Origin: Nitrospirota bacterium
Lineage (GTDB): Bacteria > Nitrospirota > Thermodesulfovibrionia > Thermodesulfovibrionales > Dissulfurispiraceae
Direction: 5' to 3'
Length of the DNA stretch: 64,000 bases
Assembly (NCBI GenBank): GCA_963710375.1
Contig: CAVPZX010000004.1
Span: forward strand, 224,001-288,000
Under the pieces are notes generated by a model. That model saw only the letters and a program-made list of their open reading frames with translations, was not told where the DNA came from and did not search any database. Below, piece after piece: positions 7,589 through 32,653 of the stretch. A program made the position numbers and the translations under genes. Position 1 is the first letter of the stretch; the number at the start of each line of letters is the position of its first letter.

Positions 7589-7705
7589 CGTGAATGGTGA
7601 ATCGTGAATAGTGAATGGCAAAACATAAAGACTGTTAATAATACTGACTGTATGACGCTCTTATACAAGCCGTCACGATTCACTATTCACGATTCACCAT
7701 TCACG
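7589..7705. repeat. Perfect 28-bp inverted repeat of 4 heptamers (NGTGAAT), 61-nt loop
   Basis: 7589-7616 CGTGAATGGTGAATCGTGAATAGTGAAT is the exact reverse complement of 7678-7705. Confidence 0.9.
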
Positions 7706-7722
7706 AATTAAAGGAGGATTAC

Positions 7723-8010
7723 GTGCCACGATCCTTAAAAAAGGGGCCATTTGTTGAGCCCAAACTGCTGAAAAAAGTCTTGTTGGTGACAGGCGCTGGT
7801 GACAAGAGGATGATTAAGACATGGTCAAGGCGTTCTACGATTGTGCCTGAATTTATAGGGCTGACTTTTGCTGTTCATAACGGTAAAAAATTTATCCCGG
7901 TTTATGTCACTGAGAACATGGTGGGACACAAACTAGGTGAATTTTCGCCAACAAGGACATTTAGAGGGCATTCGGGCTCAGCAGCTAAGGCTGCTGCGAC
8001 GAAAGGTTAA
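7723..8010 (+). CDS. rpsS: 30S ribosomal protein S19
   Basis: [21 protein letters not shown]. Confidence 0.98.
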
Positions 8011-8016
8011 TTGATT

Positions 8017-8352
8017 ATGCTATCGAAAGCGATATTGCGACATGCGAAAATGACCCCGCGGAAAGCCAGAAGGGTAGTGGACCTTATCAGGGGCAAGAGG
8101 GCAGCCGATGCGCTGGTTTCACTCAGATTTATGCCATACAGAGGGGCACGCTCTGTTGAAAAGCTTCTGAAGTCCGCAATGGCAAACGCAGAACAAAAAG
8201 ACACTCAGGTAGACATCGACAAATTGAAAATTAAGACGGCTTTTGTAGATAATGGTCCTTTTATGAAACGGATGGAGCCGAGATCTATGGGAAGAGCCAA
8301 TGTCATTAAGAAGAGATCTTGTCATATAACCATTATTCTTTCGGAGGAATGA
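8017..8352 (+). CDS. rplV: 50S ribosomal protein L22
   Basis: TPRKARRVVDLIRGK, SAMANAE. Confidence 0.97.
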   Translation: MLSKAILRHAKMTPRKARRVVDLIRGKRAADALVSLRFMPYRGARSVEKLLKSAMANAEQKDTQVDIDKLKIKTAFVDNGPFMKRMEPRSMGRANVIKKRSCHITIILSEE

Positions 8353-8388
8353 AAATGAAGTATTGTCATATGGACTGGGGGTGCTGAT

Positions 8389-9045
8389 TTGGGTCAGAAG
8401 ACGAATCCTATAGGTAATAGACTGGGCATTATACGGACCTGGGAATCAAGGTGGTTTCTTAAAAAGGGATACCAGCATCAGCTCCTGGAAGACATAGAGG
8501 TGCGCAAGTCAATAAAGAAGAAGCTCTTCCACGCAGGTGTCTCAAGAATAGAGATAGAACGGCCTGGTCAAAAACTGAAGGTCATAATACATACCGCCCG
8601 GCCTGGCATTATTATCGGCAAAAAGGGCGCTGAAGTTGAAAAGCTGAAGAAGGAACTGGAAGATGCAACGAAAAAACAGGTTGCAATCGATATAAAAGAG
8701 ATCAGGAAACCGGAAGTGGATGCGCAGCTTGTGTCCGAGAATATAGCGCTTCAGCTGGAAAAGAGGGTCGCATTCAGGAGGGCGCTCAAGCGGGCGGTGG
8801 CCTCAGCTGTCAGGTTCGGTGCGCTGGGTATCAAGGTCCAGTGTTCGGGGAGGCTGGCCGGTGCTGAAATTGCCAGAACGGAGTGGTATAGAGAAGGAAG
8901 GGTGCCTCTAAGCACCTTCAGGGCAAATATAGATTACGGATTTGCGGAAGCACGGACGACATTCGGCGCAATTGGTATAAAGGTATGGCTTTATCATGGC
9001 GATATACTCGCTGAACCACCGGTTGCCGCCTTATTAAGCGAATAA
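8389..9045 (+). CDS. rpsC: 30S ribosomal protein S3
   Basis: [29 protein letters not shown] start. Confidence 0.98.
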
Positions 9046-9060
9046 TCAGGAGAGTAAGAT

Positions 9061-9480
9061 ATGCTGGCACCAAAAAAAGTTAAATTTAGAAAAATGATGA
9101 AAGGCAATATGAACGGCAAGGCATACCGTGGCTCGGACGTCAGCTTTGGTGAGTTCGCTATGAAAGCTACGGAGCCTGGCTGGATAACGAGCCGCCAGAT
9201 AGAGGCCGCCAGGGTTGCCATAACTCGACATGCCAAGAAAGGCTGCAAGGTATGGATAAGGATTTTCCCGGATAAGCCTATAACCAAGAAGCCCGCCGAA
9301 ACAAGAATGGGTAAAGGCAAAGGCAATCCGGAGTACTGGGTTGCGGTTGTCAGTCCCGGAAGAATACTGTATGAGGTTTCAGGGGTTTCAGAAGATATTG
9401 CAAAAGAGGCATTCAAGCTTGCATCAAGGAAACTGTCTATTGCTACAAAATTTGTCGCTAGAGAGGTGGCAGTGTTATGA
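9061..9480 (+). CDS. rplP: 50S ribosomal protein L16
   Basis: [15 protein letters not shown]. Confidence 0.98.
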
Positions 9481-9701
9481 AACCTTCTGAAGTAAGGGCG
9501 TTATCTATAGAGGAATTGAGGCAGAAAGAGATGGACTTGCGGAAGGAGCTGTTCAACCTCAGGTTTCAGCTTTCGAAGGGTGAATTGCAGAACAATAGCA
9601 GAGTACTTGCAGTGCGCAAGGACATAGCGAAAGTGCTGACGGTCATTACTGAAAAGGAGCCTCATGCGGAGACCGGCAAAGGAGGCGCCAAAAATGCCTA
9701 A
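9477..9701 (+). CDS. rpmC: 50S ribosomal protein L29
   Basis: [17 protein letters not shown]. Confidence 0.95.
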
Positions 9702-9942
9702 GAAGACATACACAGGTAAAGTAGTCAGCGATAAGATGGACAAGACGGTTGTGGTAGCGGTTACCAGGACTTTTCAACACCCGATCTATCTTAAAACTGT
9801 CAAGAAGGTCACCAAGCTCAAAGCTCACGACGAGGAGAATAAATGTAAGGCGGGCGATGTGGTCGAGATTGTTGAAAGCAGGCCGCTTAGTGCGGACAAA
9901 CGGTGGCAGGTGATCAAAATCGTTAAAGGCGAGGGTAAGTAA
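9694..9942 (+). CDS. rpsQ: 30S ribosomal protein S17
   Basis: [20 protein letters not shown]; start moved to ATG after GGAGG. Confidence 0.97.
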
Positions 9943-10311
9943 ATGATACAAAATTTAAGCATCCTTGAGGTGGCGGACAACTCGGGTGCCAAGAGGGTCC
10001 AGTGCATAAGAGTCCTCGGGGGGTCCAATAGAAGGTATGCCCGGCTTGGCGATATCATAGTGGTGAGCGTTAAAGAAGCGATTCCCGAAGGCAATGTGAA
10101 AAAGGGCGCCGTGTCCAAGGCTGTTGTGGTGAGGACTAAAAAAGAAACGAAACGTCCTGACGGCTCATACATAAGGTTTGACCAGAATGCTGTTGTGCTT
10201 TTAAACCCACAGATGGAACCCGTTGGAACGAGAATTTTCGGACCGGTTGCTCGAGAGCTTAGATGGAAGGAATTCATGAAGATAATATCGCTTGCTCCCG
10301 AGGTACTATAA
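9943..10311 (+). CDS. rplN: 50S ribosomal protein L14
   Basis: [21 protein letters not shown]. Confidence 0.98.
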
Positions 10312-10327
10312 TAGTGAGGAGGATACA

Positions 10328-10645
10328 GTGGGGTTAGGAATAAAAAAGGGCGATACCGCCATGGTGACGACCGGAAAAAATAGGGGCAAAAAGGGAAGAG
10401 TGCTTTCAGTGTCCCGGGCTGCTGAAAAGGTTACGATTGAAGGTATAAATATTGTTAAAAGGCATACCAAGCCCAACAAGAAATATGCTCAAGGCGGCAT
10501 CATCGAAAAAGAAGGTCCCATTCATATATCAAACGTGATGTTCTTATGCCCGAAATGCGGCAAGCCGACAAGGATAGGCAATACAGTCCTTGATAACGGC
10601 AGTAAGCTCAGGACATGCAAAAAGTGCAAGGAGGTTTTAGATTAG
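10328..10645 (+). CDS. rplX: 50S ribosomal protein L24
   Basis: KOW motif IKKGD...[17 protein letters not shown]. Confidence 0.96.
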
Positions 10646-10647
10646 TC

Positions 10648-11190
10648 ATGGCGCCGCGTCTTATGGAAAAATATGCAACGGAAGTAATACCTGTGATCAT
10701 GAAGGAGTTTTCATATAAAAATATTATGCAGGTCCCTAAACTGCAGAAGATTGTCGTTCATGTTACTCTTGGCGAAGCCACTCAGAACATCAAGCTTCTC
10801 GAAGCAGCTGAAAAGGAACTTGCTGCTATTACCGGGCAGAAGCCGCTGGTCACGAAATCAAAGAAGGCCATCGCAGGTTTCAAGCTCAAGGAGGGCGTTC
10901 CGCTCGGTTGCAAGGTCACGCTGCGGGGAGAGCGGATGTATGAATTTTTTGACAGGTTGATCAATGTTGCTTTGCCGAGAATCAGAGATTTCAGGGGGCT
11001 GTCTACAAAATCCTTTGACGGAAGGGGAAATTATTCTTTCGGCCTGAAGGAGCAGTACATATTTCCTGAGATCGATTACGATAAAGTTGAGATGGTGCAT
11101 GGGCTCGACATAACCATGTGCACTTCAGCAAAAAACGATACCGAATGCAAATCGTTGCTCAGGCATATGGGTATCCCTTTCAGAAAGTAA
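10648..11190 (+). CDS. rplE: 50S ribosomal protein L5
   Basis: [17 protein letters not shown]. Confidence 0.97.
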
Positions 11191-11202
11191 AGGAGGAGTT
11201 TG

Positions 11203-11388
11203 GTGGCAAAGACATGTTTAATTGAGAAAAGCAACAGGGCGCCCAAGTTTAAGGTACGGGCCTATAACCGGTGCAAGTCATGCGGTAGACCGAGAGGCTA
11301 CTTAAGGAAGTTCGGACTTTGCAGGATATGCTTCAGGACATTAGCCCTCAGGGGATTCATCCCCGGGGTTACAAAATCGAGCTGGTAG
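11203..11388 (+). CDS. rpsN: 30S ribosomal protein S14, Zn-binding type Z
   Basis: [10 protein letters not shown]...LCRICFR. Confidence 0.96.
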
Positions 11389-11398
11389 GGGTGCAGGC

Positions 11399-11794
11399 AT
11401 GATGACCGATCCGATTGCTGATATGCTGACCAGAATGAGGAACACCCTCCTTATCAGGACAGAGAAGGTAGATATTCCGGCCTCTAGGATGAAGGTGGAA
11501 TTGGCAAAGATTTTAAAAGAAGAGGGTTTTATAAAATCATATAAAATTATAAAAGACAAAAAACAGGGCATGCTGCGGGTGACCCTTAAATATACGACAG
11601 ATAATAGTCCGGTTATCAGCGGCCTGAAGAGGATCAGTAAACCCGGCAGGAGAGTATATGCCGGCAAAGATGAGGTCCCAAAGGTCATGGACGGTGTTGG
11701 GATCGCTATCCTTACTACCTCGATGGGAGTCCTCAGCGATAAGTCATGTCGCCGGGAAGGTGTTGGCGGAGAGGTGCTCTGTTATGTTTGGTAA
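11399..11794 (+). CDS. rpsH: 30S ribosomal protein S8
   Basis: [30 protein letters not shown]. Confidence 0.98.
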
Positions 11795-11799
11795 TGAGT

Positions 11800-11894
11800 A
11801 CAGGTTAAGGCTGAGGCTGAGGTTAAGGAAAAAAGACTAAATGAGCGAGAATTGCTTGCCCTAACCCTAACCCTTAACCTTAACCTAAACCTGT
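11800..11894. repeat. Inverted tandem hexamer repeat (AGGYTR / YTAACC) hairpin
   Basis: ACAGGTTAAGGCTGAGGCTGAGGTTAAGG ... CCCTAACCCTAACCCTTAACCTTAACCTAAACCTGT between rpsH and rplF. Confidence 0.8.
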
Positions 11895-11912
11895 TTTTTG
11901 GAGGAGAAATAG

Positions 11913-12455
11913 ATGTCACGAATAGGTAAAAAGCCCATTACTATTCCGCAGGGAATAAACGTTGAAGTCAATCAGGACGTTATTAAAGTTAAAGGGAAGA
12001 AGGGCGAACTGAACTATACCTTCCCCGAAGGCATCAAGATATCAGTTGCCGATGGGAAGATCATTATTGAGAGGAGTAGTGATTCAAAGTCGCACAGGTC
12101 ACTCCACGGCCTTGCCAGAAGCCTTGTGTCTAACATGGTGAACGGTGTATCGCAGGGATATACAAGGGTACTGGAAATAACCGGCATTGGTTACCGGTCC
12201 CAGGTGAAGGGGACCAAACTTGCGTTTACATTGGGGTATTCTCATCCAATTGAATATCAGCTTCCCGAGGGGATAAAGGCTGCTGTTGATGAGAAGCAGA
12301 CGACTATCACATTGACCGGCATGGATAAACAACTGCTTGGTCAGGTTGCTGCCAATGTAAGGGAGTTAAGGCTGCCCGATGCCTATAAAGGCAAGGGAGT
12401 CAGGTATCAAGGTGAGCGGATCAAATTGAAGGCTGGAAAGACGGGTAAAAAATAG
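11913..12455 (+). CDS. rplF: 50S ribosomal protein L6
   Basis: MSRIGKKPI, PDAYKGKGVRY. Confidence 0.98.
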   Translation: MSRIGKKPITIPQGINVEVNQDVIKVKGKKGELNYTFPEGIKISVADGKIIIERSSDSKSHRSLHGLARSLVSNMVNGVSQGYTRVLEITGIGYRSQVKGTKLAFTLGYSHPIEYQLPEGIKAAVDEKQTTITLTGMDKQLLGQVAANVRELRLPDAYKGKGVRYQGERIKLKAGKTGKK

Positions 12456-12522
12456 GCTAAGGCTAAGGTTAAGGTTGAGAAAAAAGACTTAACGGGTTTT
12501 TCTTAACCTTAACCTTAACCTG
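12454..12522. repeat. Inverted tandem hexamer repeat hairpin
   Basis: AGGCTAAGGCTAAGGTTAAGGTTGAGAAAAA ... TTTTTCTTAACCTTAACCTTAACCTG between rplF and rplR. Confidence 0.8.
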
Positions 12523-12542
12523 TATTCTTGAAGGAGGATGTC

Positions 12543-12902
12543 GTGATTGTAAAGGAAGAGGCGAGGCAAAGGCGCCACAAAAGATTGAGGAAAAAGGTAT
12601 CCGGCAGCGTTGAGCGGCCGAGACTCTGCATTTACAAGAGCCTCAACCATATATATGCGCAGATTATCGACGATACGAAAGGTCATACTCTTATTACCGC
12701 ATCCTCGCTCGATAAGGAGTTGAAGGATGAAGGGGGACACAAGGGCAACACAGCCATGGCCAGACGGGTGGGTTTGCTGATAGCGTCGCGGGCGGTTCCT
12801 CTGGGAGTTAAAAAGATCGTATTTGACCGCGGTGGTTATAAATATCATGGTCGCATGAAAGCCCTCGCTGACGGTGCACGCGAAGGCGGCTTGGAATTTT
12901 AA
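12543..12902 (+). CDS. rplR: 50S ribosomal protein L18
   Basis: [34 protein letters not shown] start after GGAGG. Confidence 0.97.
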
Positions 12903-12908
12903 GTTGAT

Positions 12909-12994
12909 AATTACGAATTACGAATTAGGAATTACGAATTGTGGAAGAACATTATGGTCATTCATTGTTAATTCTTAATTCTTAATTCGTAATT
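12909..12994. repeat. Inverted tandem heptamer repeat (AATTACG / CKTAATT) hairpin
   Basis: AATTACG-like x4 ... GTTAATT CTTAATT CTTAATT CGTAATT between rplR and rpsE. Confidence 0.8.
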
Positions 12995-13006
12995 AAAAAA
13001 GGAGGT

Positions 13007-13546
13007 ATGGTGAAAACCGAAAGGATCGACGCTGAGGGGCTTAATTTAAAAGACAAGGTGGTCTATATAAACAGAGTTGCGAAGGTTGTTAAGGGAGGAA
13101 GGAGATTTTCCTTCAGCGCCCTTGTTGTCGTCGGCAGCGGAGACGGCATTGTCGGTGTTGGCAAGGGAAAGGCTTCAGAAGTGCCGGAAGCAATACGAAA
13201 GGCAGTGGAACAGGCCAAAAAACGCCTCATGCGGTTTGCCTTAAAAGAGGGAACCATTACGCACAAAATTATTGGAAAGTACGGTTCCAATGCAGTTGTC
13301 ATGAATCCGGCACCCAAGGGGACCGGCCTGATTGCAGGCGGCGCAGTCCGCGCGGTCTTTGAGGTTTCCGGTATCCACGATATTGTTGCAAAGGCGCTTG
13401 GCGGCCACAACCCTTTCAACACTGTTAGAGCGACACTGGATGGGCTCAGCCATTTAATGGACCCTGATGTTGTCAATAGACTAAGAGGCAAGGCCGAAGG
13501 GGAAGCCGTTGTGGAGGAAGAGAGCGAACAGGAGGTCAAAAGTTAA
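13007..13546 (+). CDS. rpsE: 30S ribosomal protein S5
   Basis: [21 protein letters not shown]. Confidence 0.98.
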
Positions 13547-13549
13547 CCA

Positions 13550-13993
13550 ATGAAAATAGAGAATTTGTCACCGGCCCCAGGGAGCAGAAAAAAGCCAAAG
13601 AGAATAGGCAGGGGCATGGGTTCCGGACACGGAAAGACTGCTACCAAGGGACATAAAGGACAGAAAGCGCGCTCCGGCGGCAACAAAGGGCCGGCCTTTG
13701 AAGGTGGACAGACGCCGCTCCAGAGAAGGCTTCCCAAGAGGGGATTCTCGAATAGGCCCTTCAAGAAAGAATACTCAATTGTGAACCTGGACGATATCGC
13801 AAAGCTTGCCGATATCGACACAGTAACGCCCGAAATCCTGATTAAACACAAGATTATAAGAGAATTGAAGGATGGTCTTAAAGTTCTGGGCGATGGTGAC
13901 ATAACCAGGCCTATTATTATTAAGGCACATGCATTCAGCGCTTCTGCGGTATCCAAAATAACTGCAGCCGGCGGCAAGTCCGAGGTATTATAG
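13550..13993 (+). CDS. rplO: 50S ribosomal protein L15
   Basis: [28 protein letters not shown]. Confidence 0.98.
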
Positions 13994-13995
13994 CT

Positions 13996-15303
13996 TTGGG
14001 CTTACTGGCCAGCATTCAAAACATCTTTAAAATCGCCGAATTAAAAAACAGGGTGCTGTTTACGCTCAGTCTGCTCGCAGTTTACAGAATGGGCGCGCAT
14101 ATCCCTACGCCAGGCATCAATAGTGAGGCGCTGAGCAAGTTCCTTACTGAAAAGGGCGGGGCGATGATGGGCTTTTTTGATATGTTCTCAGGCGGCGCCC
14201 TTTCGAGGGTCACGATTTTTGCACTGGGAATCATGCCGTATATCAGCGCTTCGATTATCTTTCAGCTCCTTACAGTGGTTATCCCCAGCCTGGGCAAACT
14301 TGCAAAAGAAGGAGAGTCCGGCAGGAAAAGGATCGTCAAATATACCAGATTCGCCACAGTTGGTATCGGCGCTATACAGTCTTTCGGCATAGCTGTCGGC
14401 CTGGAAGGAATGGCTGGAGGACAATTCATTCAGAACCCTGGCTGGAGCTTCAGAATTATGACTATGATCACCCTTACCTCCGGGACTGCATTTCTTATGT
14501 GGCTTGGAGAACAGATAACGGAGAGAGGTATTGGAAATGGCATTTCCCTCATCATTTTTGCAGGCATAGCTGCCCGGTTTCCTAACGCTGTATTCAGCAC
14601 ATTCAGTTTGGTAAGGGCCGGTGAGCTATCGATATTCTTCGTCATTTTGCTTACAGTAATTATGGTGGCGGTTATCGGCGGCATCATCTTTATCGAGAGG
14701 GGGCAGAGGAAGATTCCGGTCCAGTATGCAAAGCGGGTGATTGGCAGGAAAGTTTTCGGCGGTCAGAGCACTCATCTTCCCTTAAAGGTAAACACCGCTG
14801 GAGTTATTCCCCCCATCTTTGCTTCTTCTATAATTATGTTCCCGGCAACGGTTGCCGGATTCATTGCAGTGCCATGGGTGCAGGCCATTGCCAAACAGTT
14901 GGCTCCAGGTACGCCGACTTACACCCTTCTATATGTAGGTATGATTTTCTTTTTCAGTTATTTTTATACAGCGGTGATATTCAACCCGGTCGATATTGCC
15001 GAAAACCTGCAAAAGCATGGAGGCTTCATTCCCGGTATCAGACCGGGACAGAAGACAACTGAATACATCTACCGTGTACTTACGCGTTTGACTTTTGTGG
15101 GGGCTCTTTACCTTGCCATAGTGTGTGTAATGCCGGAGCTGCTCATCAAACGGTTCAATGTACCTTTTTACTTTGGCGGAACATCTCTCCTGATAGCCGT
15201 AGGCGTTGCCCTCGACACAGTCTCACAGATAGAATCTCACTTGTTAACCAGGTCTTACGAGGGTTTTCTCCAGAGAGGTAAATTGAAAGGCAGAAGAGAT
15301 TAA
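13996..15303 (+). CDS. secY: Preprotein translocase SecY
   Basis: FALGIMPYISASII, WLGEQITERGIGNGISL, IPGIRPG. Confidence 0.98.
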   Translation: MGLLASIQNIFKIAELKNRVLFTLSLLAVYRMGAHIPTPGINSEALSKFLTEKGGAMMGFFDMFSGGALSRVTIFALGIMPYISASIIFQLLTVVIPSLGKLAKEGESGRKRIVKYTRFATVGIGAIQSFGIAVGLEGMAGGQFIQNPGWSFRIMTMITLTSGTAFLMWLGEQITERGIGNGISLIIFAGIAARFPNAVFSTFSLVRAGELSIFFVILLTVIMVAVIGGIIFIERGQRKIPVQYAKRVIGRKVFGGQSTHLPLKVNTAGVIPPIFASSIIMFPATVAGFIAVPWVQAIAKQLAPGTPTYTLLYVGMIFFFSYFYTAVIFNPVDIAENLQKHGGFIPGIRPGQKTTEYIYRVLTRLTFVGALYLAIVCVMPELLIKRFNVPFYFGGTSLLIAVGVALDTVSQIESHLLTRSYEGFLQRGKLKGRRD

Positions 15304-15315
15304 CATTACTGCACT

Positions 15316-16065
15316 GTGATAATCGTAAAGTCCAAAAGAGAGATAGAAAAAATTGCAGCTGCGTGCCGTATCGTAGCAGAGATTCTGAAGAACCTGAAGT
15401 CCTTTATTGCGGTGGATATAACGACTGCCGACATAGAAGCGTACGTGAAGGACCAGATAAAGAAGCGGAACGCAATTTCGGCCTTTATGGGATATAGGGG
15501 GTATCCGGCAAGCACGTGCACATCGGTCAATGACCAGGTGGTGCATGGCATCCCGTCCCGGATGTCCAGATTGAAAAGCGGCGACATAATTAGTATTGAT
15601 TTGGGCGTTGTCCTGGAAGGGTTTTACGGCGACGCAGCTCTGACTTTTCCAGTTGGCGTTGTGGATGATGAGGCACGGAAGTTGATGTCGGTAACCGAAG
15701 AGGCCCTATATGCAGGGATAAAGAATGCTGTGGTGGGAAACAGGGTCTCGGACATTTCGGCTGCCATTCAGCAGCATGTAGAGTCCAACGGTTTTTCTGT
15801 CGTGAGGGCATTTGTCGGACATGGAATCGGGCGCTCTTTGCATGAGGATCCCCAAGTGCCGAACTTTGGTGAATCCGGCCGGGGGCCTCGACTTAAGGAG
15901 GGAATGACCTTGGCAATTGAGCCTATGGTTAACGCCGGTTGTGCGGACGTTAACATACTCGATGACGGATGGACAGCCGTTACTGCTGATGGCCGGTTGT
16001 CCGCTCACTTTGAACATACTATTGCTATAACTAAAAGTGTTCCGGTAATCTTGACTAAAATTTAG
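15316..16065 (+). CDS. map: Methionine aminopeptidase type I
   Basis: VVHGIP, GHGIG, AIEPM, SAHFEHT. Confidence 0.97.
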   Translation: MIIVKSKREIEKIAAACRIVAEILKNLKSFIAVDITTADIEAYVKDQIKKRNAISAFMGYRGYPASTCTSVNDQVVHGIPSRMSRLKSGDIISIDLGVVLEGFYGDAALTFPVGVVDDEARKLMSVTEEALYAGIKNAVVGNRVSDISAAIQQHVESNGFSVVRAFVGHGIGRSLHEDPQVPNFGESGRGPRLKEGMTLAIEPMVNAGCADVNILDDGWTAVTADGRLSAHFEHTIAITKSVPVILTKI

Positions 16066-16092
16066 TATACAGGTATAATGATAGGCTTACGC

Positions 16093-16311
16093 ATGGCGAA
16101 AGAAGAAAATATTGAAGTGTCGGGAACAATCGTCGAAACTCTGCCAAACGCGATGTTCAGGGTTGCTCTCGAAAACGGCCAAATTATACTTGCATACGTA
16201 TCCGGCAAGATGCGGATGCATTTTATAAAGATATTGCCTGGGGACAAAGTTACTATCGAGCTTTCCCCATATGATCTGACTAAGGGCCGTATAACGTATA
16301 GATTCAAATAG
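16093..16311 (+). CDS. infA: Translation initiation factor IF-1
   Basis: MAKEE...LPNAMFRV...[10 protein letters not shown]. Confidence 0.97.
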
Positions 16312-16374
16312 TGAACGGCGGTTTGCAGTACGTGCCTACTGCCTGCTGTTTAGTATCTTTTAGGGGGATGAATT

Positions 16375-16488
16375 ATGAAGGTAAAGCCTTCTGTAAAACC
16401 GGTATGTTCCAAGTGTAAGATAGTGAAGAGAAAAGGCGTTGTCAGGATCCTCTGTGAAAACCCGAGGCATAAGCAGAGGCAGGGATAG
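16375..16488 (+). CDS. rpmJ: 50S ribosomal protein L36
   Basis: Manual translation [37 protein letters not shown] (37 aa, below track cutoff). Confidence 0.97.
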
Positions 16489-16918: not shown

Positions 16919-16934
16919 GGAGGACTGGTATATA

Positions 16935-17948: not shown

Positions 17949-17985
17949 CGGAATCCCCGAAAAGTCGTCAGACTTTTTTGGGGTG
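17949..17985 (-). repeat. REP-like palindromic element, copy 2
   Basis: Reverse complement CACCCCAAAAAAGTCTGACGACTTTTCGGGGATTCCG. Confidence 0.65.
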
Positions 17986-19976: not shown

Positions 19977-20016
19977 GCACCCCAGAAAATCTTTGACTTT
20001 TTGGGGACCCCGTGCG
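19977..20016 (+). repeat. REP-like palindromic element, copy 3
   Basis: GCACCCCAGAAAATCTTTGACTTTTTGGGGACCCCGTGCG. Confidence 0.7.
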
Positions 20017-22865: not shown

Positions 22866-24189
22866 CGTGAATATCAATGTGGAATATTTAACAAGAGTCG
22901 AGGGACACGGCAATATCGTGGTCAACGTGAAAGAGGGAAGGATGGAGGCCTGCCGACTCGATATTGTCGAGGCTCCGCGTTTTTTTGAAGGTATCCTCAG
23001 GGGGCGGTCAGTTTTCGAAGCCCAGCACATTACATCACGGATATGCGGCATCTGCTCCTGCGGACACACGCTGGCGTCGATCCAGGCTGCCGAGGACGCG
23101 CTGGGGATTACTCCCTCTGACCAGACGGTGAGGCTGAGAAAACTCCTTCTGCATTTAGAGATGCTCGACAGCCACATTCTGCATATTTACCTACTTGCGG
23201 CACCCGATTTGCTGGGTGTTAAAAGTTTTGTACCGATGATTGACAGTCATTCAAAGGTTGTCCGCAGGGCTTTAAGGATGAAGAAGACCTGCAATGAAGT
23301 TTGTACCATACTGGTGGGCCGCCATGTTCATCCCATATCCGCCATAGTGGGCGGTTTTACAAAACTACCCGGCGAGCCTGACCTCGATGACATGCTTGAC
23401 CTACTGCGGGGAATGAGACCTGACATTAATGCTACAGTCGAGCTGGCGGCCTCGCTGAAATTTCCGGAATTTGAACGCGATACAGAATATGTTGCATTGG
23501 TCAGTGATGATGGCGAATACCCGTTCCTTATGGGCGATATCGGCTCGACGGACGGCGTCAGAATGAACAAGCGGGATTATAGGAAGGCGACCAATGAATT
23601 TATCGTGGCCCACTCTTCTGCAAAACATACAAAACTTAGCCGGGATTCATACGCAGTGGGCTCCCTTGCGCGATTTAACCTGAATTATGAAAAACTTCAT
23701 CCCAAAGCCAGGAATGTTGCCGCTGCCATAAACCTCAAGCCGAAGTGCATCAATCCTTACCTGAATACAGCAGCACAGCTTATTGAATCGGTACACTGTC
23801 TCGAAGAAGCTATCGGGATATTGGAATATTTTAAGAGTCATGGCATTAATTACGATGAAGTAATGCTAGTCGGGTTGAATGAACAATCGAAGATTCCGGT
23901 AAAGGCCGGCAGCGGGGTGGGCGCCGTGGAAGTGCCGCGCGGCGTGCTGTTCCATCAATACGATATAGATGAAAAGGGCGTTATAATAAATGCCAACTGC
24001 ATTATCCCCACAAACCAGAACCTCAACAATATTGAGCGTGATATGGTGAAACTTGTTCCGGAAATTATTACCGGAACTGATGACGAAATAACGCTTGGCC
24101 TCGAGATGCTGGTAAGGGCATACGACCCGTGCATCTCCTGCTCAACGCATATGCTGAATGTGGAATTCAAAAACCGTGCGGCACTATAA
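22852..24189 (+). CDS. [NiFe]-hydrogenase large (alpha) subunit, group 3b-type
   Basis: TRVEGHG, L1 RICGICS, L2 DPCISCSTH plus C-terminal extension. Confidence 0.93.
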   Translation: MNKRSVNINVEYLTRVEGHGNIVVNVKEGRMEACRLDIVEAPRFFEGILRGRSVFEAQHITSRICGICSCGHTLASIQAAEDALGITPSDQTVRLRKLLLHLEMLDSHILHIYLLAAPDLLGVKSFVPMIDSHSKVVRRALRMKKTCNEVCTILVGRHVHPISAIVGGFTKLPGEPDLDDMLDLLRGMRPDINATVELAASLKFPEFERDTEYVALVSDDGEYPFLMGDIGSTDGVRMNKRDYRKATNEFIVAHSSAKHTKLSRDSYAVGSLARFNLNYEKLHPKARNVAAAINLKPKCINPYLNTAAQLIESVHCLEEAIGILEYFKSHGINYDEVMLVGLNEQSKIPVKAGSGVGAVEVPRGVLFHQYDIDEKGVIINANCIIPTNQNLNNIERDMVKLVPEIITGTDDEITLGLEMLVRAYDPCISCSTHMLNVEFKNRAAL

Positions 24190-24427
24190 GTAGTTTCAAC
24201 TCGTCGAAGAATAAATGCTCCACTTCTCCTGCTTTCCCTATTATGTTAGGTGCAACTTTTTTTGCTCCTGCCACTAAGGGCGACATGCTGTCTATGTTGT
24301 TCAACTCATTGATTATTTGTATTTTCATTATTGAATAGGTGATTACTGTAAATATTTGTTGACAGCAACGGACTAAATGTATTATCGACAGTCAACATCT
24401 CGAAAGGCTTTTGAGGTCTCAAAAAAT

Positions 24428-24514
24428 GTCATTTAGAAAGAGGCGAAGTAATTTCGTACTTGCTAACAAGTTGATTTCTAAAGATTGCCTGGTCGCTCCA
24501 CTCACCGCAATGGC
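24428..24514. repeat. Degenerate GTCATT...GCAATG palindromic intergenic repeat
   Basis: GTCATT...GCGAAGTAATTT...AGATTGCCTGGTCGCT...CGCAATGGC; decayed hairpin architecture. Confidence 0.35.
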
Positions 24515-24650
24515 ATTGTAACATACTGTTTGTTGTAGGCACATCCTTTTTATAGGTTAATCAGGCATTTTTTTTGCAACCTTTAATGTCTGAATGGGAC
24601 CTCTAAAAAAACAGTGATAACTATAATGGTTAGGGGAGCGGGACTCAGAG

Positions 24651-25601
24651 ATGTCACTTAATGATCTTACTGCTGTAGTGGTCGATGATACTGAAGAATG
24701 CCGCACCTTAATCGAAGAAGTAACAAGGATGGCCGGTTTTAAGGTATCAAGTTTCTCGTGTCCGTTAGAGGCTTTGAACTACGTGGCTGAGCATCAGATA
24801 GACATGGTTTTCACGGACTTCAGGATGCCGAAAATGGATGGCCTGACCTTTATGCGGGAAGCGCGCAAGTTACACCGTGATATACCTATTTTTATTATAA
24901 CGGGGGAGCCTAACGCTAAAGAACTGAAGGACCTTTCGCTGGAGGACCCAGCCTCGGAATTATTTGTCAAACCATTTTCTCCTCTGGATTTCTTGGAGCG
25001 GGTAAAACCTCTGGCCCTGCGCCGTCAGTTCATTAAATTTATTGGCGCGTACCGCCTGAAAGAGAACGTATTCGAGAACCACTGCGTACGGGTAGGACTA
25101 TACTCGAAAATTATAGCAGCCGGGTTGAACTGGGACAAAAATGAGCAGGATTTGATCTATCACGCTGCCCAGTCGCATGACATAGGCATGATCAGCATCC
25201 CGGACCATATTTTCTTTAAGTCGGAACGACTGACGCGCGACGAAATGGAGATGGTCAGGAAGCACAGCAGCATTGGCTCCAGTATACTGCCAAAGAACTC
25301 GAACCCCTATTTTGCGACAGCTTCCATCGTTTCGCTGACGCACCACGAGAGGGTCAACGGCAGCGGCTACCCGTCCGGACTTGCAGGAGATGCTATTTCG
25401 GTCTACGGAAGGATTACTGCCCTGTCCGATGTTTTCGACGTTCTGACGTCCACAAGGCCTTATAAGGCAGCATGGGACTTCAAAAAATCGCTCTCTTTTG
25501 TCAGCGACAACAGGGACATGAATTTTGATCCCGTGCTAGTCAACGTTTTTGTCAGGAATGTCAACAGAATAGAGGAGATTTACACCAGACTCGCGGACTG
25601 A
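24651..25601 (+). CDS. Response regulator with HD-GYP c-di-GMP phosphodiesterase domain
   Basis: REC (VVDD, TDFRMPKMDG, KPF), HDIG, HHERVNGSGYP, DVFD..RPYK. Confidence 0.9.
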   Translation: MSLNDLTAVVVDDTEECRTLIEEVTRMAGFKVSSFSCPLEALNYVAEHQIDMVFTDFRMPKMDGLTFMREARKLHRDIPIFIITGEPNAKELKDLSLEDPASELFVKPFSPLDFLERVKPLALRRQFIKFIGAYRLKENVFENHCVRVGLYSKIIAAGLNWDKNEQDLIYHAAQSHDIGMISIPDHIFFKSERLTRDEMEMVRKHSSIGSSILPKNSNPYFATASIVSLTHHERVNGSGYPSGLAGDAISVYGRITALSDVFDVLTSTRPYKAAWDFKKSLSFVSDNRDMNFDPVLVNVFVRNVNRIEEIYTRLAD

Positions 25602-25657
25602 AGCACCGGAATATATATATGATAATTTTACAATCTCTTTGATAAGGAGGAACATGT

Positions 25658-26026
25658 ATGAAGGTAGGTATATTTTTTTCTCTTGGTGGAGAAATTATCT
25701 CGGATTCAGTACATGTCGAAGACGGCGAGGCTGTTGGTGACGCAATTCAGTACGGGAACCACTATGAGTTCTGGAAGGCACTTAAACCGAGGACATCCAC
25801 GGAGCATTCATTCAAAGTATGGCCCTATTATGCATTTCCGCGCGGTAAAGTTGTTTGCATACCAGGAGAGCGTGTGTGTCGCATTTATGCAGACCCCTGT
25901 CTGAAACGCAGGGATATCGCATCAGTCATAAAGCACTTTGGCAACAGAGACTTTGCAATAGAGGTCAAAAATGACAAGCAATATCAATGCGCCAAATGCA
26001 ACAAATATTTTGCTCTTGTCGCCTAA
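25658..26026 (+). CDS. Hypothetical protein (FPRG motif, C-terminal CxxC)
   Basis: Good SD AAGGAGG; 122 aa. Confidence 0.7.
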   Translation: MKVGIFFSLGGEIISDSVHVEDGEAVGDAIQYGNHYEFWKALKPRTSTEHSFKVWPYYAFPRGKVVCIPGERVCRIYADPCLKRRDIASVIKHFGNRDFAIEVKNDKQYQCAKCNKYFALVA

Positions 26027-26089
26027 CCAGCACTCCGGTAGATAACCTGCCCCTGCCGCTACCATCCTTATGCCACAACCCAGCTTAAA

Positions 26090-26118
26090 TTGACAAAGCT
26101 CAGGGGTTAAGTTAAACT
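26090..26118 (+). promoter_or_regulatory. sigma70 promoter of tig-clpPX
   Basis: TTGACA-17-TAAACT. Confidence 0.65.
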
Positions 26119-26163
26119 AAAATGTTACATATCAAGCACTAATTGCAGAAGGAGAATTGTAAA

Positions 26164-27405
26164 TTGTTAAAGGCACTTGAAGACATATCATCAACCAAAA
26201 AACGGCTCAAAATAGAAATTCCGGCTGATTCCATAGAAGGTGAAATCAGGAAAGGTCTCATGGATGCTCAGAAGAAGGCAAAATTTCCGGGTTTTAGGCA
26301 AGGCAAGGCGCCGATGACGCTGGTCGAGAAGAAATTCAGCAAGGATATCGAGACGGAAGTTTTGAAAAACATGGTTTCTGAATATTATCTGCAGGCGGTC
26401 AAGGAGGCTGACATAAAACCGGTTTCGCGGCCTGCCTTGGAAGAATCTTTTGATTTTAAGAGGAATTCGGATCTTTCTATGACCATGACGGTAGAGGTCA
26501 TGCCTCAAATAGACAACCTGTCGTATGAGAATATACCTGTCAAGAATGTTCCGGTCGAAATAACGGACGAGGAAGTAGACACCGTTATGAGCAATCTTGC
26601 TGACGAGCGGGCAACCTATGAAGCATCGGACAGTCCGATACAGGCAGGTGACCTGGTGACTATTGATTATACTGTCAGGGAGGACAACGCTTTAGTCAAA
26701 GACGTGGTCCTCAAAGTCGGCAGTGGCCCCTACCCAAAGGAGTTTTTTGACGGTCTCGAGGGCAGAAAGAAGGATGACGAGATCGAAATTGAAGCCGCTT
26801 TTCCAGAGGACATGCAATCACCCTATGCCGGTAAAAAACACTCTTTTATCATCAAGATCAGAGAGGTGAAAAAAAAGACAATCCCTGCTCTTGATGACGA
26901 ATTTGCAAAGGATATAGGGCTTGAGAACCTGGAGCAGGTGAAAGAAAGGGTCAGGGGAAATCTCTTAAATGCCAAAAACGGACAGGCTGAAAAGGCCATG
27001 CAGCGTGAAATCCTCGACAAGCTGCTTGACGCCCATCAGTTTGAAATTCCGGAAAGCATGCTTAATCACGAGCTTGCCGGCATTATAAGCGAAATACGGG
27101 CATCTGGAAAAGATGACAGGTCCGATGAGGCGTTGATTCAAGAATTAAGGCCTGGCGCCGAAAAGAGTGTTAAGGCGTCCGTTCTATTGGAAATGATCGG
27201 AGAAAAGGAAGGGACAGCTGTTTCAGAAGATGAAGTCAGGGAGGAAATTGCGGCTATGGCGCAAAGATTTCGTATTACTCCTGAAAACATTATAAAATAT
27301 TATGTAACCAGAGACGGCTCGCTGGAGGGATTGCGGCATTCCCTTTTTGAGAGAAAGGTCCTTGCACTTCTGCTTGCCAAAGCTAAAATTGAAAAAGGAG
27401 ACTAA
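26164..27405 (+). CDS. tig: Trigger factor
   Basis: PGFRQGKAP ribosome-binding motif; upstream of clpP. Confidence 0.93.
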   Translation: MLKALEDISSTKKRLKIEIPADSIEGEIRKGLMDAQKKAKFPGFRQGKAPMTLVEKKFSKDIETEVLKNMVSEYYLQAVKEADIKPVSRPALEESFDFKRNSDLSMTMTVEVMPQIDNLSYENIPVKNVPVEITDEEVDTVMSNLADERATYEASDSPIQAGDLVTIDYTVREDNALVKDVVLKVGSGPYPKEFFDGLEGRKKDDEIEIEAAFPEDMQSPYAGKKHSFIIKIREVKKKTIPALDDEFAKDIGLENLEQVKERVRGNLLNAKNGQAEKAMQREILDKLLDAHQFEIPESMLNHELAGIISEIRASGKDDRSDEALIQELRPGAEKSVKASVLLEMIGEKEGTAVSEDEVREEIAAMAQRFRITPENIIKYYVTRDGSLEGLRHSLFERKVLALLLAKAKIEKGD

Positions 27406-27408
27406 GGG

Positions 27409-28011
27409 ATGAGCATAGTTCCAATTGTAATTGAACAGACCGGGCGGACCGAGAGGGTATATGACATATATTCAAGACTGCTTAAGGACAGGATAATTTT
27501 TATTGGGATGCCTATAGATGACAACGTAGCAAATGTGGTTATTGCTCAGCTGCTCTTTCTGCAGACTGAAGACCCTGAGAAAGATATCCATATATATATC
27601 AATTCACCAGGCGGTGTTGTTTCTGCGGGCCTGGCAATGTACGATACCATGCAGTTTGTAAAGCCGGACATTGCAACTTACTGCATTGGCCAGGCCGCGA
27701 GCATGGGCGCGCTGCTTTTATGCGCCGGCACAAAGGGCAAGCGTTTTGCACTGCCCCATTCGAGGATTATGATTCATCAGCCTACTGCGGGATTTTATGG
27801 ACAGGCAACGGACATAGAAATCCAGGCCAAAGAGATTTTGAAAATGAAAGAGACACTGAACAATATTATGGCTAACCATACCGGACAGTCGTATGAGAAG
27901 GTCCATGACGATACCGAGAGAGATTATTTTATGTCTGGGGATGATGCCAAGGCATACGGCATTGTGGATGAGGTAATAGATTCGGCTAAACTTAAAAAGA
28001 AGGACCAATAG
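27409..28011 (+). CDS. clpP: ATP-dependent Clp protease proteolytic subunit
   Basis: [29 protein letters not shown]. Confidence 0.98.
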
Positions 28012-28059
28012 TCGGTCGATAACTGTTCGTTGTGAACGGTTGACGGAGTCGGAGGTTTT

Positions 28060-29298
28060 ATGGCACGGAAGATTAATGACGCGCTGCTTAAATGCTCTTT
28101 TTGCGGCAAGGGACAGGATGAGGTCAAGAAGCTTATTGCCGGTCCTACGGTTTATATTTGTGACGAGTGTGTCGGGCTATGCAATGAGATAATAGATGAG
28201 GAGTTGCATGTTCTCGATAAAGATTTTTCGAGGAAGCTTCCTGCCCCAAGCGAGATACATAAATTTTTGAACGATTATGTGATAGGACAGGAAAAGGCAA
28301 AAAGGGTGCTGTCCGTTGCTGTTCACAACCATTATAAAAGGATATTCCGGGGCTCTAAATCCGATGTTGAGCTTCAGAAAAGCAACATTCTGCTGATAGG
28401 CCCGACAGGAACGGGAAAGACGCTCCTTGCGCAGATACTTGCCAGGTTCCTCGATGTGCCCTTCACCATAGCTGATGCGACAACGCTGACCGAGGCAGGC
28501 TATGTAGGCGAGGATGTTGAAAATGTGCTCCTGAAATTACTGCAGGCAGCCGACTATGATGTGGAACGGGCCCAGAGGGGAATCATCTATATCGACGAGA
28601 TAGATAAGATAAGCAGGAAATCGGACAGCCCTTCAATAACGAGAGATGTATCAGGAGAGGGTGTCCAGCAGGCGCTTCTCAAGATAATCGAAGGCACTGT
28701 AGCCAATATCCCCCCGCAAGGCGGCAGAAAGCATCCTCAGCAGGAATACATACAGCTCGACACCTCTAACATCCTCTTTATGTGCGGCGGTGCATTTGTG
28801 GGGCTTAATGACATTATAGAGCGCAGGACGGGCAAAGGGAGAATAGGCTTCGGGTCCGGGGTGGTTGTCAAAAAAGACAAGGGAGCGGATGTGCTCGGCC
28901 TTGTTGAACCTGAGGACCTGATGCGCTACGGACTTATCCCAGAATTCGTAGGCCGTCTGCCTGTTATCGCAACTCTGGTGGAGCTGGATGAGGCCGCGCT
29001 GATAACGATATTGACTCAGCCCAAAAATGCGTTGGTAAAGCAGTACCAGAAACTATTTATGATGGACAATGTGAGGCTGAAATTTACCGATGGGGCGCTT
29101 GCCGCCATAGCGAAGAAAGCCGTTGAGAGAAAAACCGGCGCTCGCGGTCTAAGGGCTATCCTTGAAGACGTAATGCTTGATGTGATGTACGAGATACCCT
29201 CAAAGAGGGGTGTTGCAGAGTGTATTATAAACGAGGAGGCCATCTCACAGAAGGACCGGGCTATTCTCGTGTACGAAGATCAGGCTGAATCGGCATAA
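28060..29298 (+). CDS. clpX: Clp protease ATP-binding subunit ClpX
   Basis: CSFC...CDEC Zn finger, [19 protein letters not shown]. Confidence 0.98.
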
Positions 29299-29306
29299 AT
29301 TAGAGT

Positions 29307-29391
29307 GAGCAGTTGGCAGAAAGCAGTAAATGACATACCTTATACAGACGATTTAACTTGTAGCTTGCTTTTCTTACTGCCTATTGCTTAC
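29307..29391. repeat. Degenerate inverted heptamer repeat (GCAG.. / ..CTGC) hairpin
   Basis: GAGCAGTTGGCAGAAAGCAGTAA ... TTACTGCCTATTGCTTAC between convergent clpX and DUF721 gene. Confidence 0.5.
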
Positions 29392-29852
29392 TTGTCCTTC
29401 AGCAGTGCTTTTTCGAGCACGTTTCTTATGCTGTCCTGTACTCCGGGGTCATTTACCGCCGCGAGGGTTTGATCTATCCATTCGACATCTGCATCGGCAA
29501 GTGTTTTTTGGGGTTGAGAAGTTTGCTCACAGTTGTTCATGCCTGGCTGAATACCGGAGTGCTTGAAGCGTGACGGATTTGTCCTGCCATGCCTGAAGTC
29601 GATGGCATTTATCCCGTATGCCTCAAGTTTCTTCAGAATAGCCTGTTTAAAAAACTTCAGTTGCTGCAGCCACAGGGGAGAATCGACATTGACCACAAGC
29701 ACGCCATTATTGAGGCTTACCGGATAGATATGCACTGAGAGCGGTTCATCAAACAGCGTGGCCCATTCCCTTTGCAAACGAGCGAGAGTCAGACCGTCTT
29801 CCATGCCGATATTTTTGAAAATAGAGGCTAAGATCGATCCGGCGTTTTCCAC
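29388..29852 (-). CDS. DUF721/DciA-like protein
   Basis: L..W...., P..L.NGVLVVNVDSPLWLQQLKF pattern. Confidence 0.7.
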   Translation of the reverse strand: MENAGSILASIFKNIGMEDGLTLARLQREWATLFDEPLSVHIYPVSLNNGVLVVNVDSPLWLQQLKFFKQAILKKLEAYGINAIDFRHGRTNPSRFKHSGIQPGMNNCEQTSQPQKTLADADVEWIDQTLAAVNDPGVQDSIRNVLEKALLKDK

Positions 29853-29856
29853 GCAG

Positions 29857-30045
29857 CTATGTTGCTTTGACTACTTTCCTGGAGCGAATGCATCTGGTAC
29901 AAACATATGACCTTTTACTGCCGCTGTCTGTAACAATCTTGATTTTCTGGATGTTCGGCATAATTGTACGCTTTGTTCTATTATTAGCGTGGCTTACATT
30001 ATTTCCGACGGCTCTTTGCTTGCCACAAATTGAACAGGCTGCCAT
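29857..30045 (-). CDS. rpmB: 50S ribosomal protein L28
   Basis: CSICGK...GNNVSHANNRTKR...PN...VCTRCIRS. Confidence 0.96.
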   Translation of the reverse strand: MAACSICGKQRAVGNNVSHANNRTKRTIMPNIQKIKIVTDSGSKRSYVCTRCIRSRKVVKAT

Positions 30046-30153
30046 GATCTTCCTCCTTTGTTCGTTGCATTAAAAAAGTCTTTTATGATAACATTTCAAG
30101 ACCAATGTTACAAGGTAAAATTAAAGTAAGAAGAATGGAAGGAGCATACGCGG

Positions 30154-32547
30154 ATGTCGGGCAGTGAGACAAAGAGCCTTGAACTTGCAAAGGAACTGGA
30201 TCTGAAGCCTTCTGAAGTTGTGAAGCGGGTTGAGCGGATCAGGGGTGTAGAATTTAAAAAAGGCACTTCGAATGTAAAGATCACCGCTGAAGAAGCGGCT
30301 AAGATCAGGGCTCAAGAAGCGGGTAAAGCGGCGGAGTTAGCCGGTAAGAAGAAAAAAGCTCCGGAAGTGCGCGAAAGACCCTCTGCAGAGACCCAGCCTA
30401 AGAAAAAGCCTGAGGGCGGTGCGCCAAAGGCGGAACCTGTTAAAAAGAAAGTTCACAAGGCCCATGAGCCTGCAGTGGCTGACCTTGAAAAGCCCACTGA
30501 GAGCAAACAAGAAGTGTATGCAGAGGTGGAGGCAGAGGAAGTGGGTTTGGCTGTAGCTGCACCTCCTGTTGCTGCTGAAGAGGATGAAGAGGTTAAAGTT
30601 CCTGACCGGTTCAAGAAAGAGATAGAAGTAGAAAAGGTCGAAAAGATCAAGGTCAAGCCGACAATGCAGAAGGCCTTCCAGGCAATAAAGAAGATCGAAC
30701 CGAAGAAATGGGTTGATCAGAAGTCGATGAAAAGGCCGAAGGACAGGATGAGGAGGCCCGAGGCTGAGCAGCAACCACAGATCACTGCGCCAAGAAAGAA
30801 ATCGATCAAGTTTGAAGAAGGGACAACGGTCAAGGCGTTTGCTGAACTGATAGGACTTAAAATACCTGATGTGATAAAGAAACTAATGGAACTTGGGTAT
30901 ATGGCAACCGTTAACCAGCCGATTGATTCCGATGCGGCACTCCTTGTTGCCGACAGCTTCGGGATAAAGGCCGAATCGGTGTCCGCCGAACAGTTCGATG
31001 TTGTGGAAGAGGCTGCTGAAAATGCTGTCAACCGTATTTTCCGTCCACCGGTTGTTACAATAATGGGCCACGTCGATCATGGAAAGACCTCACTGCTGGA
31101 TGCGATAAGAGAAACTAAAGTGACAGAAACGGAAGCCGGCGGTATTACGCAGCACATTGGCGCATACAAGGTTTCGCTTCAGGGTAAAGATATTACGTTC
31201 CTTGACACCCCAGGTCACGAGGCCTTTACCGCCTTGAGGGCAAGGGGGGCAAAAGTGACGGACATCGTTGTTCTGGTTGTTGCTGCGGATGACGGCGTTA
31301 TGCCCCAGACTATTGAGGCTATAGACCATTCAAAGGCGGCGAATGTGCCTATTGTCGTTGCCATAAATAAAATAGACAAACCGGAAGCGAACCAGACCAG
31401 GGTCAGGAATGAACTTGCCGAACACGGCGTGGTGTCCGAGGAGTGGGGCGGTCAGAATATTTTTGTAGAAGTCTCGGCCAAGAAACGTATCGGCATTGAG
31501 CACTTGCTTGAAATGATCCTGTTGCAGTCCGAAGTGATGGAGCTCAAGGCCAACCCTAATAAACCCGCCCGCGGCACGATCATCGAAGCGAAGCTTGACA
31601 GGGGCCGGGGACCGGTGGCAACGGTGCTTATTCAGTCTGGCACATTAAAAATAGGAGATGCCTTTGTTGCAGGGGCCGCATCAGGCAGGGTCAGGGCGCT
31701 TATTAACGACACAGGGAAAAAGATCCAGGAAGCGCTCCCTTCGACACCTGTCGAGGTTATCGGTTTTTCTGAAGTCCCGACTGCAGGCGATGTTTTTACC
31801 TGCGTGGAGGATGAAAAGAGGGCCCGCCAGGTGGCCCTTGCACGTTCGCAGAAGCAGCGTCTTGTCGAAATATCGCGTCACAGGAAACTAACTCTAGATG
31901 AGCTTTATGCCAGGATAAAAGAAGGGCAGATAAGAGAGCTGAACATCATTATTAAAGGCGATGTCCAGGGCTCTGTTGAAGCTCTCAAGCAATCACTAGA
32001 GGGTATTACACATGCCGAAGTAAAAGTGCGGGTCATCCATTCATCTGTTGGCGGTATCAATGAATCCGATGTGATGCTTGCTGCGGCCTCAAATGCCATC
32101 ATTATAGGGTTCAATGTTCGCCCGGAACTGAAGGCATCCCAGACAGCGGAAAAAGAAGGGGTCGACATAAGGCTTTACAATATCATCTATGAAGCCATTG
32201 AGGATGTAAAGAAGGCGCTGGAAGGGCTCCTCGAGCCTATGCTCAGGGAAAAGGTCCTGGGCAGGGCCGAAGTGAGACAGCTTTTCCATGTCTCCAGGAT
32301 AGGCACGATTGCGGGCTGTCATGTGATCGATGGGGCCATCCACCGCGCCAGCGACGGGATAAGGGTCATCAGAGACAATATCGTTGTCTACGAGGGGAAG
32401 ATCGACTCGTTGAAAAGATTCAAAGAGGATACGAAGGAAGTGCAGACAGGGTATGACTGCGGCATCACTATAGAGAATTTCAATGATCTTAAAATCGGCG
32501 ACATCCTAGAAAATTACATTATAGAAAGAATAGCGGCGAAACTATAA
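30154..32547 (+). CDS. infB: Translation initiation factor IF-2
   Basis: [39 protein letters not shown]. Confidence 0.98.
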
Positions 32548-32551
32548 GAAA

Positions 32552-32653
32552 CAGGTTAAGGCTGAGGTTAAGGCTAAGAAAAAAGCGAGGATATAAAGAA
32601 TAAGTATTACGGCAGCGCGTTTCTTTCTTAATCTTAACCTTGACCTTAACCTG
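32552..32653. repeat. Inverted tandem hexamer repeat hairpin
   Basis: CAGGTTAAGGCTGAGGTTAAGGCTAAGAAA ... TTTCTTAATCTTAACCTTGACCTTAACCTG between infB and rbfA. Confidence 0.8.

Follow-up and report, generated by a model that had tools for sequence, protein, structure and literature searches.

Hairpin elements in the window

The window analysed here is a stretch of 64,000 nucleotides (C4:224001-288000) of the 3.19-Mb genome of a Nitrospirota bacterium, labelled G000 (completeness 98.8%; labels of the type C1-C7 denote its contigs, and G001-G0xx denote related genomes). Five spacers between its translation genes carry hairpin elements in which a tandem array of short units (an arm) is followed by a loop and by a reverse-complement array. 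The elements are described below together with genes for four-helix-bundle proteins (FHB; TIGR02436/PF05635) that are enclosed by arrays of the same kind elsewhere in the genome.

The preliminary description of this DNA had reported the architecture in all five spacers, and each was found in place. The rplB-rpsS spacer holds an element of unit family B7 (7589..7705; unit GTGAAWN) with arms at 7589-7616 and 7670-7705 around a unique loop, and 28 nt of the arms (7589-7616 versus 7678-7705) are 100% complementary. Elements of family A6 (AGGYWR) lie between rpsH and rplF (arms 11802-11830 and 11852-11892), between rplF and rplR (12454-12484 and 12497-12521, the left arm starting within the rplF stop codon), and between infB and rbfA (32552-32587 and 32618-32653), while the 107-nt rplR-rpsE spacer holds a D7 element (AATTANG; 12908-12940 and 12964-12995). 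The names of the flanking genes were confirmed by Pfam. No open reading frame (ORF) is enclosed in the window spacers, the predicted stem energies of the five range from -29 to -56 kcal/mol, and no Rfam match was obtained in positions 1-35000 of the window.

A weaker hairpin after clpX had also been assigned to this set of operon spacers. It is real, a degenerate GCAGT-type (F7-like) hairpin at 29303-29393 with a predicted fold of -28 kcal/mol that fell below the threshold of the array detector and was hence uncalled, but it sits between the convergent genes clpX and dciA (the latter identified by Pfam), outside any operon. A short hairpin with partial F7-like words at 16308..16356 (-22.8 kcal/mol for 16306-16385) is a probable decayed member of the family; it follows a gene that we take to be infA, with what is presumably rpmJ downstream.

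Genome-wide catalogue of arms and elements

The search of G000 with nine unit patterns, taken from a prior unbiased scan of the same genome, yielded 510 arms, compared with 4 and 1 arms and zero pairs in the two 4th-order Markov-shuffled genomes that served as the null model. Of the 242 forward arms that had a reverse partner downstream, 200 had it within 150 nt, and the opposite order (a reverse arm followed by a forward arm within 150 nt) was seen in 0 of 203. Pairing gave 197 array-loop-inverted-array elements, the five window spacers among them. With gene orientation taken from our own simple gene caller, 146 elements lay between co-oriented genes, 26 between divergent and 19 between convergent genes, and 6 within called ORFs. 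The median element length was 92 nt and the median loop 32 nt; four or five units were counted in 424 of the 510 arms, one degenerate end unit included. In 43 spacers the next start codon is distant, and in 31 of these the arm still starts between -25 and +15 nt from the stop codon; the reverse held in 4 of 11. A second copy in G000 was missing for 135 of 167 loops, and one loop was common to six B7 elements on four contigs, whose arms differ in unit order. Placement and pairing of the arrays are far above chance. The genome-wide scan for repeat units and enclosed genes that had been proposed as a check thus returned 510 arms, 197 elements and six enclosed FHB genes.

Unit families and pairing of arms

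The units sort into about ten families of 6-8-base words, in which fixed positions conserved at 94-100% stand beside degenerate ones. Unit order was distinct in 115 of 116 B7 arms. Pairing of an arm with its own partner scarcely exceeded that with a randomly drawn arm of the same family (A6, 0.812 versus 0.804; B7, 0.829 versus 0.816), and in D7, E7 and G8 it was no better. The exception was C7 (0.815 versus 0.775), where the excess may reflect its two sub-units. The proposal that structure rather than sequence is conserved in these spacers was therefore not borne out.

That such arms are neutral microsatellites, which replication slippage would lengthen and fold-back synthesis would mirror, is most improbable. 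The units are short and tandem, and adjacent units were slightly more identical than random draws in A6 (0.22 versus 0.17) and C7 (0.13 versus 0.07), but B7 neighbours were not (0.10 versus 0.11 expected). The highly conserved positions beside degenerate ones, the strict polarity of the arms and the fact that partner arms are not mirror copies also speak against slippage, which is contradicted by the match between units and protein clades across phyla given below.

The two strands of the elements behaved alike. Sense-strand mismatches were G-U in 178 cases versus A-C in 167, the more stable fold was the sense one in 70 elements and the antisense one in 74, and no excess of U-tracts on the sense side, the asymmetry of a terminator, was found. 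These indirect tests gave no sign of selection on an RNA stem.

FHB genes and their arm units

The G000 genome contained six full TIGR02436/PF05635 genes, each with arm arrays and each of a different family. The suspected link between the hairpins and four-helix-bundle cassettes is supported by these six genes and by one slot with both filled and empty alleles (see below). GxxExxY-type cargo, which had been named in the same connection, was not recovered, as TIGR04256 had no match in G000; DUF559 and reverse transcriptase (PF00078) had no match in this genome either. Of 41 related genomes, 27 had a match to the FHB family, and the closest solved structures were the five-chain entries 2gsc and 2rld.

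The arm families were compared among 48 near-full-length FHB proteins from relatives, with family labels given by eye; other proteins, partly broken or distant, were inspected by eye and left out. Of 31 testable proteins, 25 had the arm family of their nearest neighbour (shuffle mean 2, maximum 10), and only 2 of 46 FHB pairs from the same genome had a common family. Wider surveys, in which relatives were collected with single FHB proteins as queries, showed the same pattern. In the hexamer clade (the query and proteins of 44-74% identity from many phyla), 75 of 80 had period-6 arms, 69 of 80 had three AGRYHD words, and none had the octamer pattern. In the octamer clade, 69 of 80 had period-8 arms and none the hexamer pattern. 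Judged from these sequence comparisons, the protein clade predicts the arm unit.

The numbers of gene-less arrays were also compared with the presence of the cognate FHB gene. The only two carriers of the K5 octamer clade, from different genera, had 73 and 68 K5 arrays, and none of the other 39 genomes had more than 8. B7 arrays numbered 70-180 in four of five carriers and 7 in the fifth, and did not exceed 13 in any of the 36 genomes without the gene; A6 arrays numbered 49-209 in five carriers. Eleven units from FHB arms of other genomes had 0 matches in G000. Common families are spread genome-wide, while rare ones cluster around their own gene (40 of 41 matches for J7; 8 of 31 arms for G8, versus 2% of other arms). 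From the gene names that we assign by recall, the region around the rare-family FHB genes is presumably rich in sugar-modification genes. Gene-less arrays are mostly abundant where the matching FHB gene is present, with exceptions that are weighed below.

Filled, empty and exchanged slots in relatives

Comparison with relatives showed different contents at the same slots. At C5:326749, G002 and G007 have a full arm-FHB-arm cassette and G000 an empty A6 pair, whose loop opens with the FHB start region with its start codon retained. At C5:328264 an A6 cassette in G007 corresponds to a G8 hairpin in G000 and a C7 hairpin in G003, and at C4:198121 a D7 cassette in G001 corresponds to nothing in G000.

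The window spacers varied likewise. Among same-genus relatives, the rplB-rpsS spacer contained a C7 element in G003, G005 and G008, an A6 element in G007 and nothing in G006, and the rplR-rpsE spacer was 9 nt long in six of them. The rpsH-rplF spacer had a C7 element in G003 and was 22-23 nt long in G001, G005 and G008; rplF-rplR had B7 in G003, C7 in G006 and a 12-nt spacer in G001 and G007; and infB-rbfA had a different unit family in each of G003 and G008. The ribosomal-protein slots yielded no FHB gene in the loci of 39 relatives, the rplB-rpsS spacer of G011 (locus L017) being unreadable; that spacer is 428 nt long, mostly N and bounded by arms, and its size would fit a filled cassette. 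A 452-nt spacer in G034 was considered as a filled allele and rejected, as it reads as an N-terminal extension of rplE. Loops in general showed no enrichment for cognate FHB ends when 45-nt ends were compared, and two A6 loops retain the FHB start region. The search for filled versus empty alleles thus succeeded at C5:326749 and failed at the ribosomal-protein slots, where the idea that the spacers are remnants of cargo found neither an FHB gene in relatives nor FHB ends in the loops.

Over about 1.2 Mb compared between G000 and G003 plus G008 (flank identity 88%), 64 slot comparisons gave 16 cases of the same family, 41 of another family or another hairpin, 6 empty and 1 ambiguous. G003 was occupied at 27 of 43 junctions that are filled in G000, versus 27 of 205 other junctions. 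No consistent target-site duplication was seen by eye, among few tight/occupied pairs and in relatives about 12% diverged. Elements are rapidly gained, lost and replaced by other families at fixed slots.

Two side observations concern the same spacers. Duplicated gene ends in the rpsH-rplF and rplR-rpsE spacers of L006 (G006) and L039 (G002) are probably assembly artefacts. Long inverted repeats without tandem units lie at window positions 36224-36382, 45857-46041, 59088-59259 and 47814-47847, and the 36224 type recurs elsewhere and takes the same slots as hairpins in the G003 comparisons.

The persistence of slots bears on the main rival explanation, in which the hairpins are domesticated mRNA elements, that is, RNase III, stability, pausing or termination signals selected by the host at gene junctions and possibly read by FHB in the role of an RNA-binding regulator. 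Strong stems that begin at the stop codon, the 31 of 43 long spacers that are still stop-anchored, and slots that remain filled despite a change of family (41 of 64 comparisons) favour it. Related intervening sequences (IVS) of rRNA are described as cut by RNase III (PMC4990558), and a stability or coupling role is proposed for short tandemly repeated repetitive (STRR) hairpins of cyanobacteria (PMC2670836), in the parts of these reports that were consulted. The explanation is weakened by the strand symmetry of the elements (178 versus 167 mismatches, 70 versus 74 folds, no U-tract excess), by spacers of 9-23 nt at the same ribosomal junctions in close relatives, and by in-frame elements within rimO, nadD and other genes, where efficient cleavage would cost protein. 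With slot persistence and stop anchoring on one side and strand symmetry and tight alleles on the other, we regard it as possible but unlikely.

Arms inside coding sequences

Twenty arms lie within long ORFs of G000. The "loop" within the Mut7-C gene consists of native coding sequence, bracketed by an H8 pair in G000 and G001; only the right arm is present in G003, and single arms of other families occur in G005 and G007. The rimO gene of G005 has a left arm from another family, the insertion in nadD is missing in 2 of 4 relatives, and at C5:323630 the loop is kept in G003 with different outer arms. Elements within rimO, nadD and others are in frame, as are the inspected coding insertions, for which it should be noted that an ORF-based search favours in-frame cases; a self-splicing or excised mRNA intron would not have to preserve the frame. 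The cases listed show that an arm can appear or be exchanged independently of the loop and of the other arm, although nested insertion or recombination between lineages could produce the same pattern.

These within-gene cases motivate a second form of the FHB-based explanation, in which arms are written singly, an FHB clade together with a host polymerase or repair enzyme adding 4-5 copies of its own degenerate word at a target site. Inverted pairs would then arise around any sequence, be it an FHB gene, a host coding segment or a stray loop, and new arms would overwrite arms of other families. We put single-arm writing forward only tentatively, as a possible but unlikely variant.

Further arms in coding sequence were recorded separately. 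A C7 element at C5:322916-322990, in a gene taken from its motifs to be trpE-like, shifts the frame in G000 and is in frame in G003; the frame break is possibly an assembly error, a pseudogene or a slippage site. Arms are translated as gene N-termini at C5:373398-373440, C5:194808-195681, C4:218362, C5:422207 and C7:73964, and include apparent signal-peptide or pilin-like leaders. An ORF of 813 aa at C3:147211-149652, membrane/TPR-like, contains three arms of two families, all in frame.

Relation to known systems

In REPIN/RAYT systems and miniature inverted-repeat transposable elements (MITEs), numerous short hairpin elements are accompanied by a rare protein-coding gene of matching sequence. 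A similar origin here, with whole elements copied by a transposase and FHB as a passenger, would agree with the six B7 elements on four contigs that have one common loop and with the single Y1 transposase (PF01797) of G000, at C2:220024-220350 on the minus strand. That gene, in an open frame of 319 aa, has on its flanks a short inverted repeat, GGGGTCAGACTTGACTATTGACAT, which bears no relation to the arm families. Whereas RAYT genes are flanked by the same repeats as their elements, the catalogue has no arm within about 10 kb of this gene. Apart from the six-copy B7 subfamily, the common internal sequence that MITEs have between terminal inverted repeats is missing: a second copy is lacking for 135 of 167 loops, nearly every B7 arm has its own unit order, and arms are not copies of their partner. 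The G000 elements further differ in having tandem-word arms, sometimes single, and a partner protein without a known catalytic role. The native coding "loop" of the Mut7-C gene, with single arms of three families in relatives, is also at odds with wholesale copying, and a passenger FHB leaves the constancy of units across 44-74% protein identity unexplained. This origin is therefore considered distinctly improbable.

The six filled cassettes resemble the rRNA IVS of Coxiella, described as an S23p/PF05635 ORF in a stem-loop that was horizontally acquired (PMC4990558), in that a protein of the same family is enclosed within a stem-loop. Unlike the IVS as portrayed there, the cassettes are flanked by protein genes rather than located in rRNA genes, the elements sit at mRNA gene junctions or inside ORFs, the arms consist of degenerate tandem words, and the genome combines six paralogues, each with its own unit family, with about 200 copies that lack a gene.

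The G000 elements have the features of STRR/Xanthomonas-type paired heptamer repeats: short, degenerate units, about four to an array, in arrays that often form inverted pairs and lie close to stop codons. In Xanthomonas, inverted pairs of GGGAATC heptamer arrays, 70-75 per genome, lie near stop codons and likewise contain about four degenerate heptamers (Rehm et al., PMC4692102). In the sections consulted, that single unit family is read as G-quadruplexes and no protein is linked to it, whereas G000 has about ten families, most without G-runs, that are tied to FHB clades. Short tandem 7-8-mers that form hairpins or opposite-strand pairs are likewise described for the STRR of cyanobacterial intergenic DNA (PMC2670836), for paired 7-8-nt repeat sites in Geobacter metallireducens (PMC2700814), and for the TAACTGA repeats of Beggiatoaceae, which also occur within ORFs and ribosomal-protein operons (PMC4679880). 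The consulted parts of these reports give no origin or partner gene and propose IHF/HU, S1, Csp and CsrA as candidates; "four helix" and "S23" are absent from PMC4679880.

Structure 2GSC is linked to Avd, a protein of diversity-generating retroelements (DGRs), whose fold is presented as homologous to PF05635 (PMC10053308, as far as consulted). G000 lacks the reverse transcriptase of a DGR by the PF00078 search (the template and variable repeats of a DGR were not searched), and the fixed A on both strands of B7 differs from adenine mutagenesis. No link between FHB genes and paired short repeats was found in the literature searched, a collection that takes in only a minority of subscription journals.

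Other features of the window

A small palindromic motif, CCCC-AAAAG...CTTTTTGGGG, is repeated at window positions 1570-1600, 17955-17985 and 19980-20015, that is, in the rpsG-fusA spacer, in the rpsD-rpoA spacer and 3' of a PQ-loop gene, and one pattern for it had 15 matches across G000. A tRNA-Sec gene lies at 55273-55370 on the minus strand. An ORF of 122 aa on the plus strand (25658-26026) had no Pfam match at E 1e-8.

Proposed origin and significance

The window spacers are probably, in our estimation, gene-less members of a spreading element specified by FHB proteins. This explanation starts from the architecture, the clade-unit code, the filled and empty alleles at one slot and the turnover, all of which were observed. 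The full form of the element would be an arm, an FHB (PF05635) gene and an inverted arm. Because the word families track FHB branches, the FHB protein likely recognises its own repeats and helps to spread them: each branch is predicted to bind its own word of 6-9 bases and would promote, in trans, new arm pairs directly after stop codons. An FHB pentamer may bind an arm of 4-5 units. Its substrate is probably DNA rather than RNA, since the element is strand-symmetric and has no sense-strand pairing bias, and a host enzyme would supply the chemistry, given the lack of a reverse transcriptase match and of such arms at the only Y1 transposase. Glycosylation islands are the probable route by which cassettes arrive, after which the words would spread over the whole genome. 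In operons the hairpin probably persists through tolerance, because the stop codon and the ribosome-binding site stay intact, and not through selection for a processing stem.

Several points weigh against the FHB-specified element. The matching gene is present with few arrays in G023 (A6, 8) and G036 (B7, 7), many A6 arrays occur without a detected A6 gene in G003 (89) and G001 (61), and in G000 a cognate FHB gene is missing for D7, E7, H8 and F7, whose arrays had 8-51 matches. The array counts are not independent across genomes, as these are kin, and the match between clade and unit is partly co-inheritance because arms and gene are physically linked. Slot persistence could mean that the hairpin is useful to the host. 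Since loops have no general enrichment for cognate FHB ends, most empty elements do not appear from their sequence to be deletion products of cassettes.

The explanation joins two known, unexplained things, the paired short repeats and the FHB genes in stems; in the cited literature, as far as consulted, bacterial heptamer repeats are abundant and unexplained and PF05635 is uncharacterised. It would likely explain the long-puzzling heptamer repeats of bacteria. If true, the element would reshape protein loops and even ribosomal-protein operons from one close relative to the next, and repeat writing, if it occurs, would be a protein-coded system and the source of bacterial hexamer-to-nonamer repeats across phyla. 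The clade-word code gives each FHB protein a predicted ligand plus built-in negative controls. Should the code hold, a protein family and a repeat class that are both very common would gain a function and an origin, respectively, and the FHB proteins would amount to a naturally occurring set of small, programmable readers of repeats.

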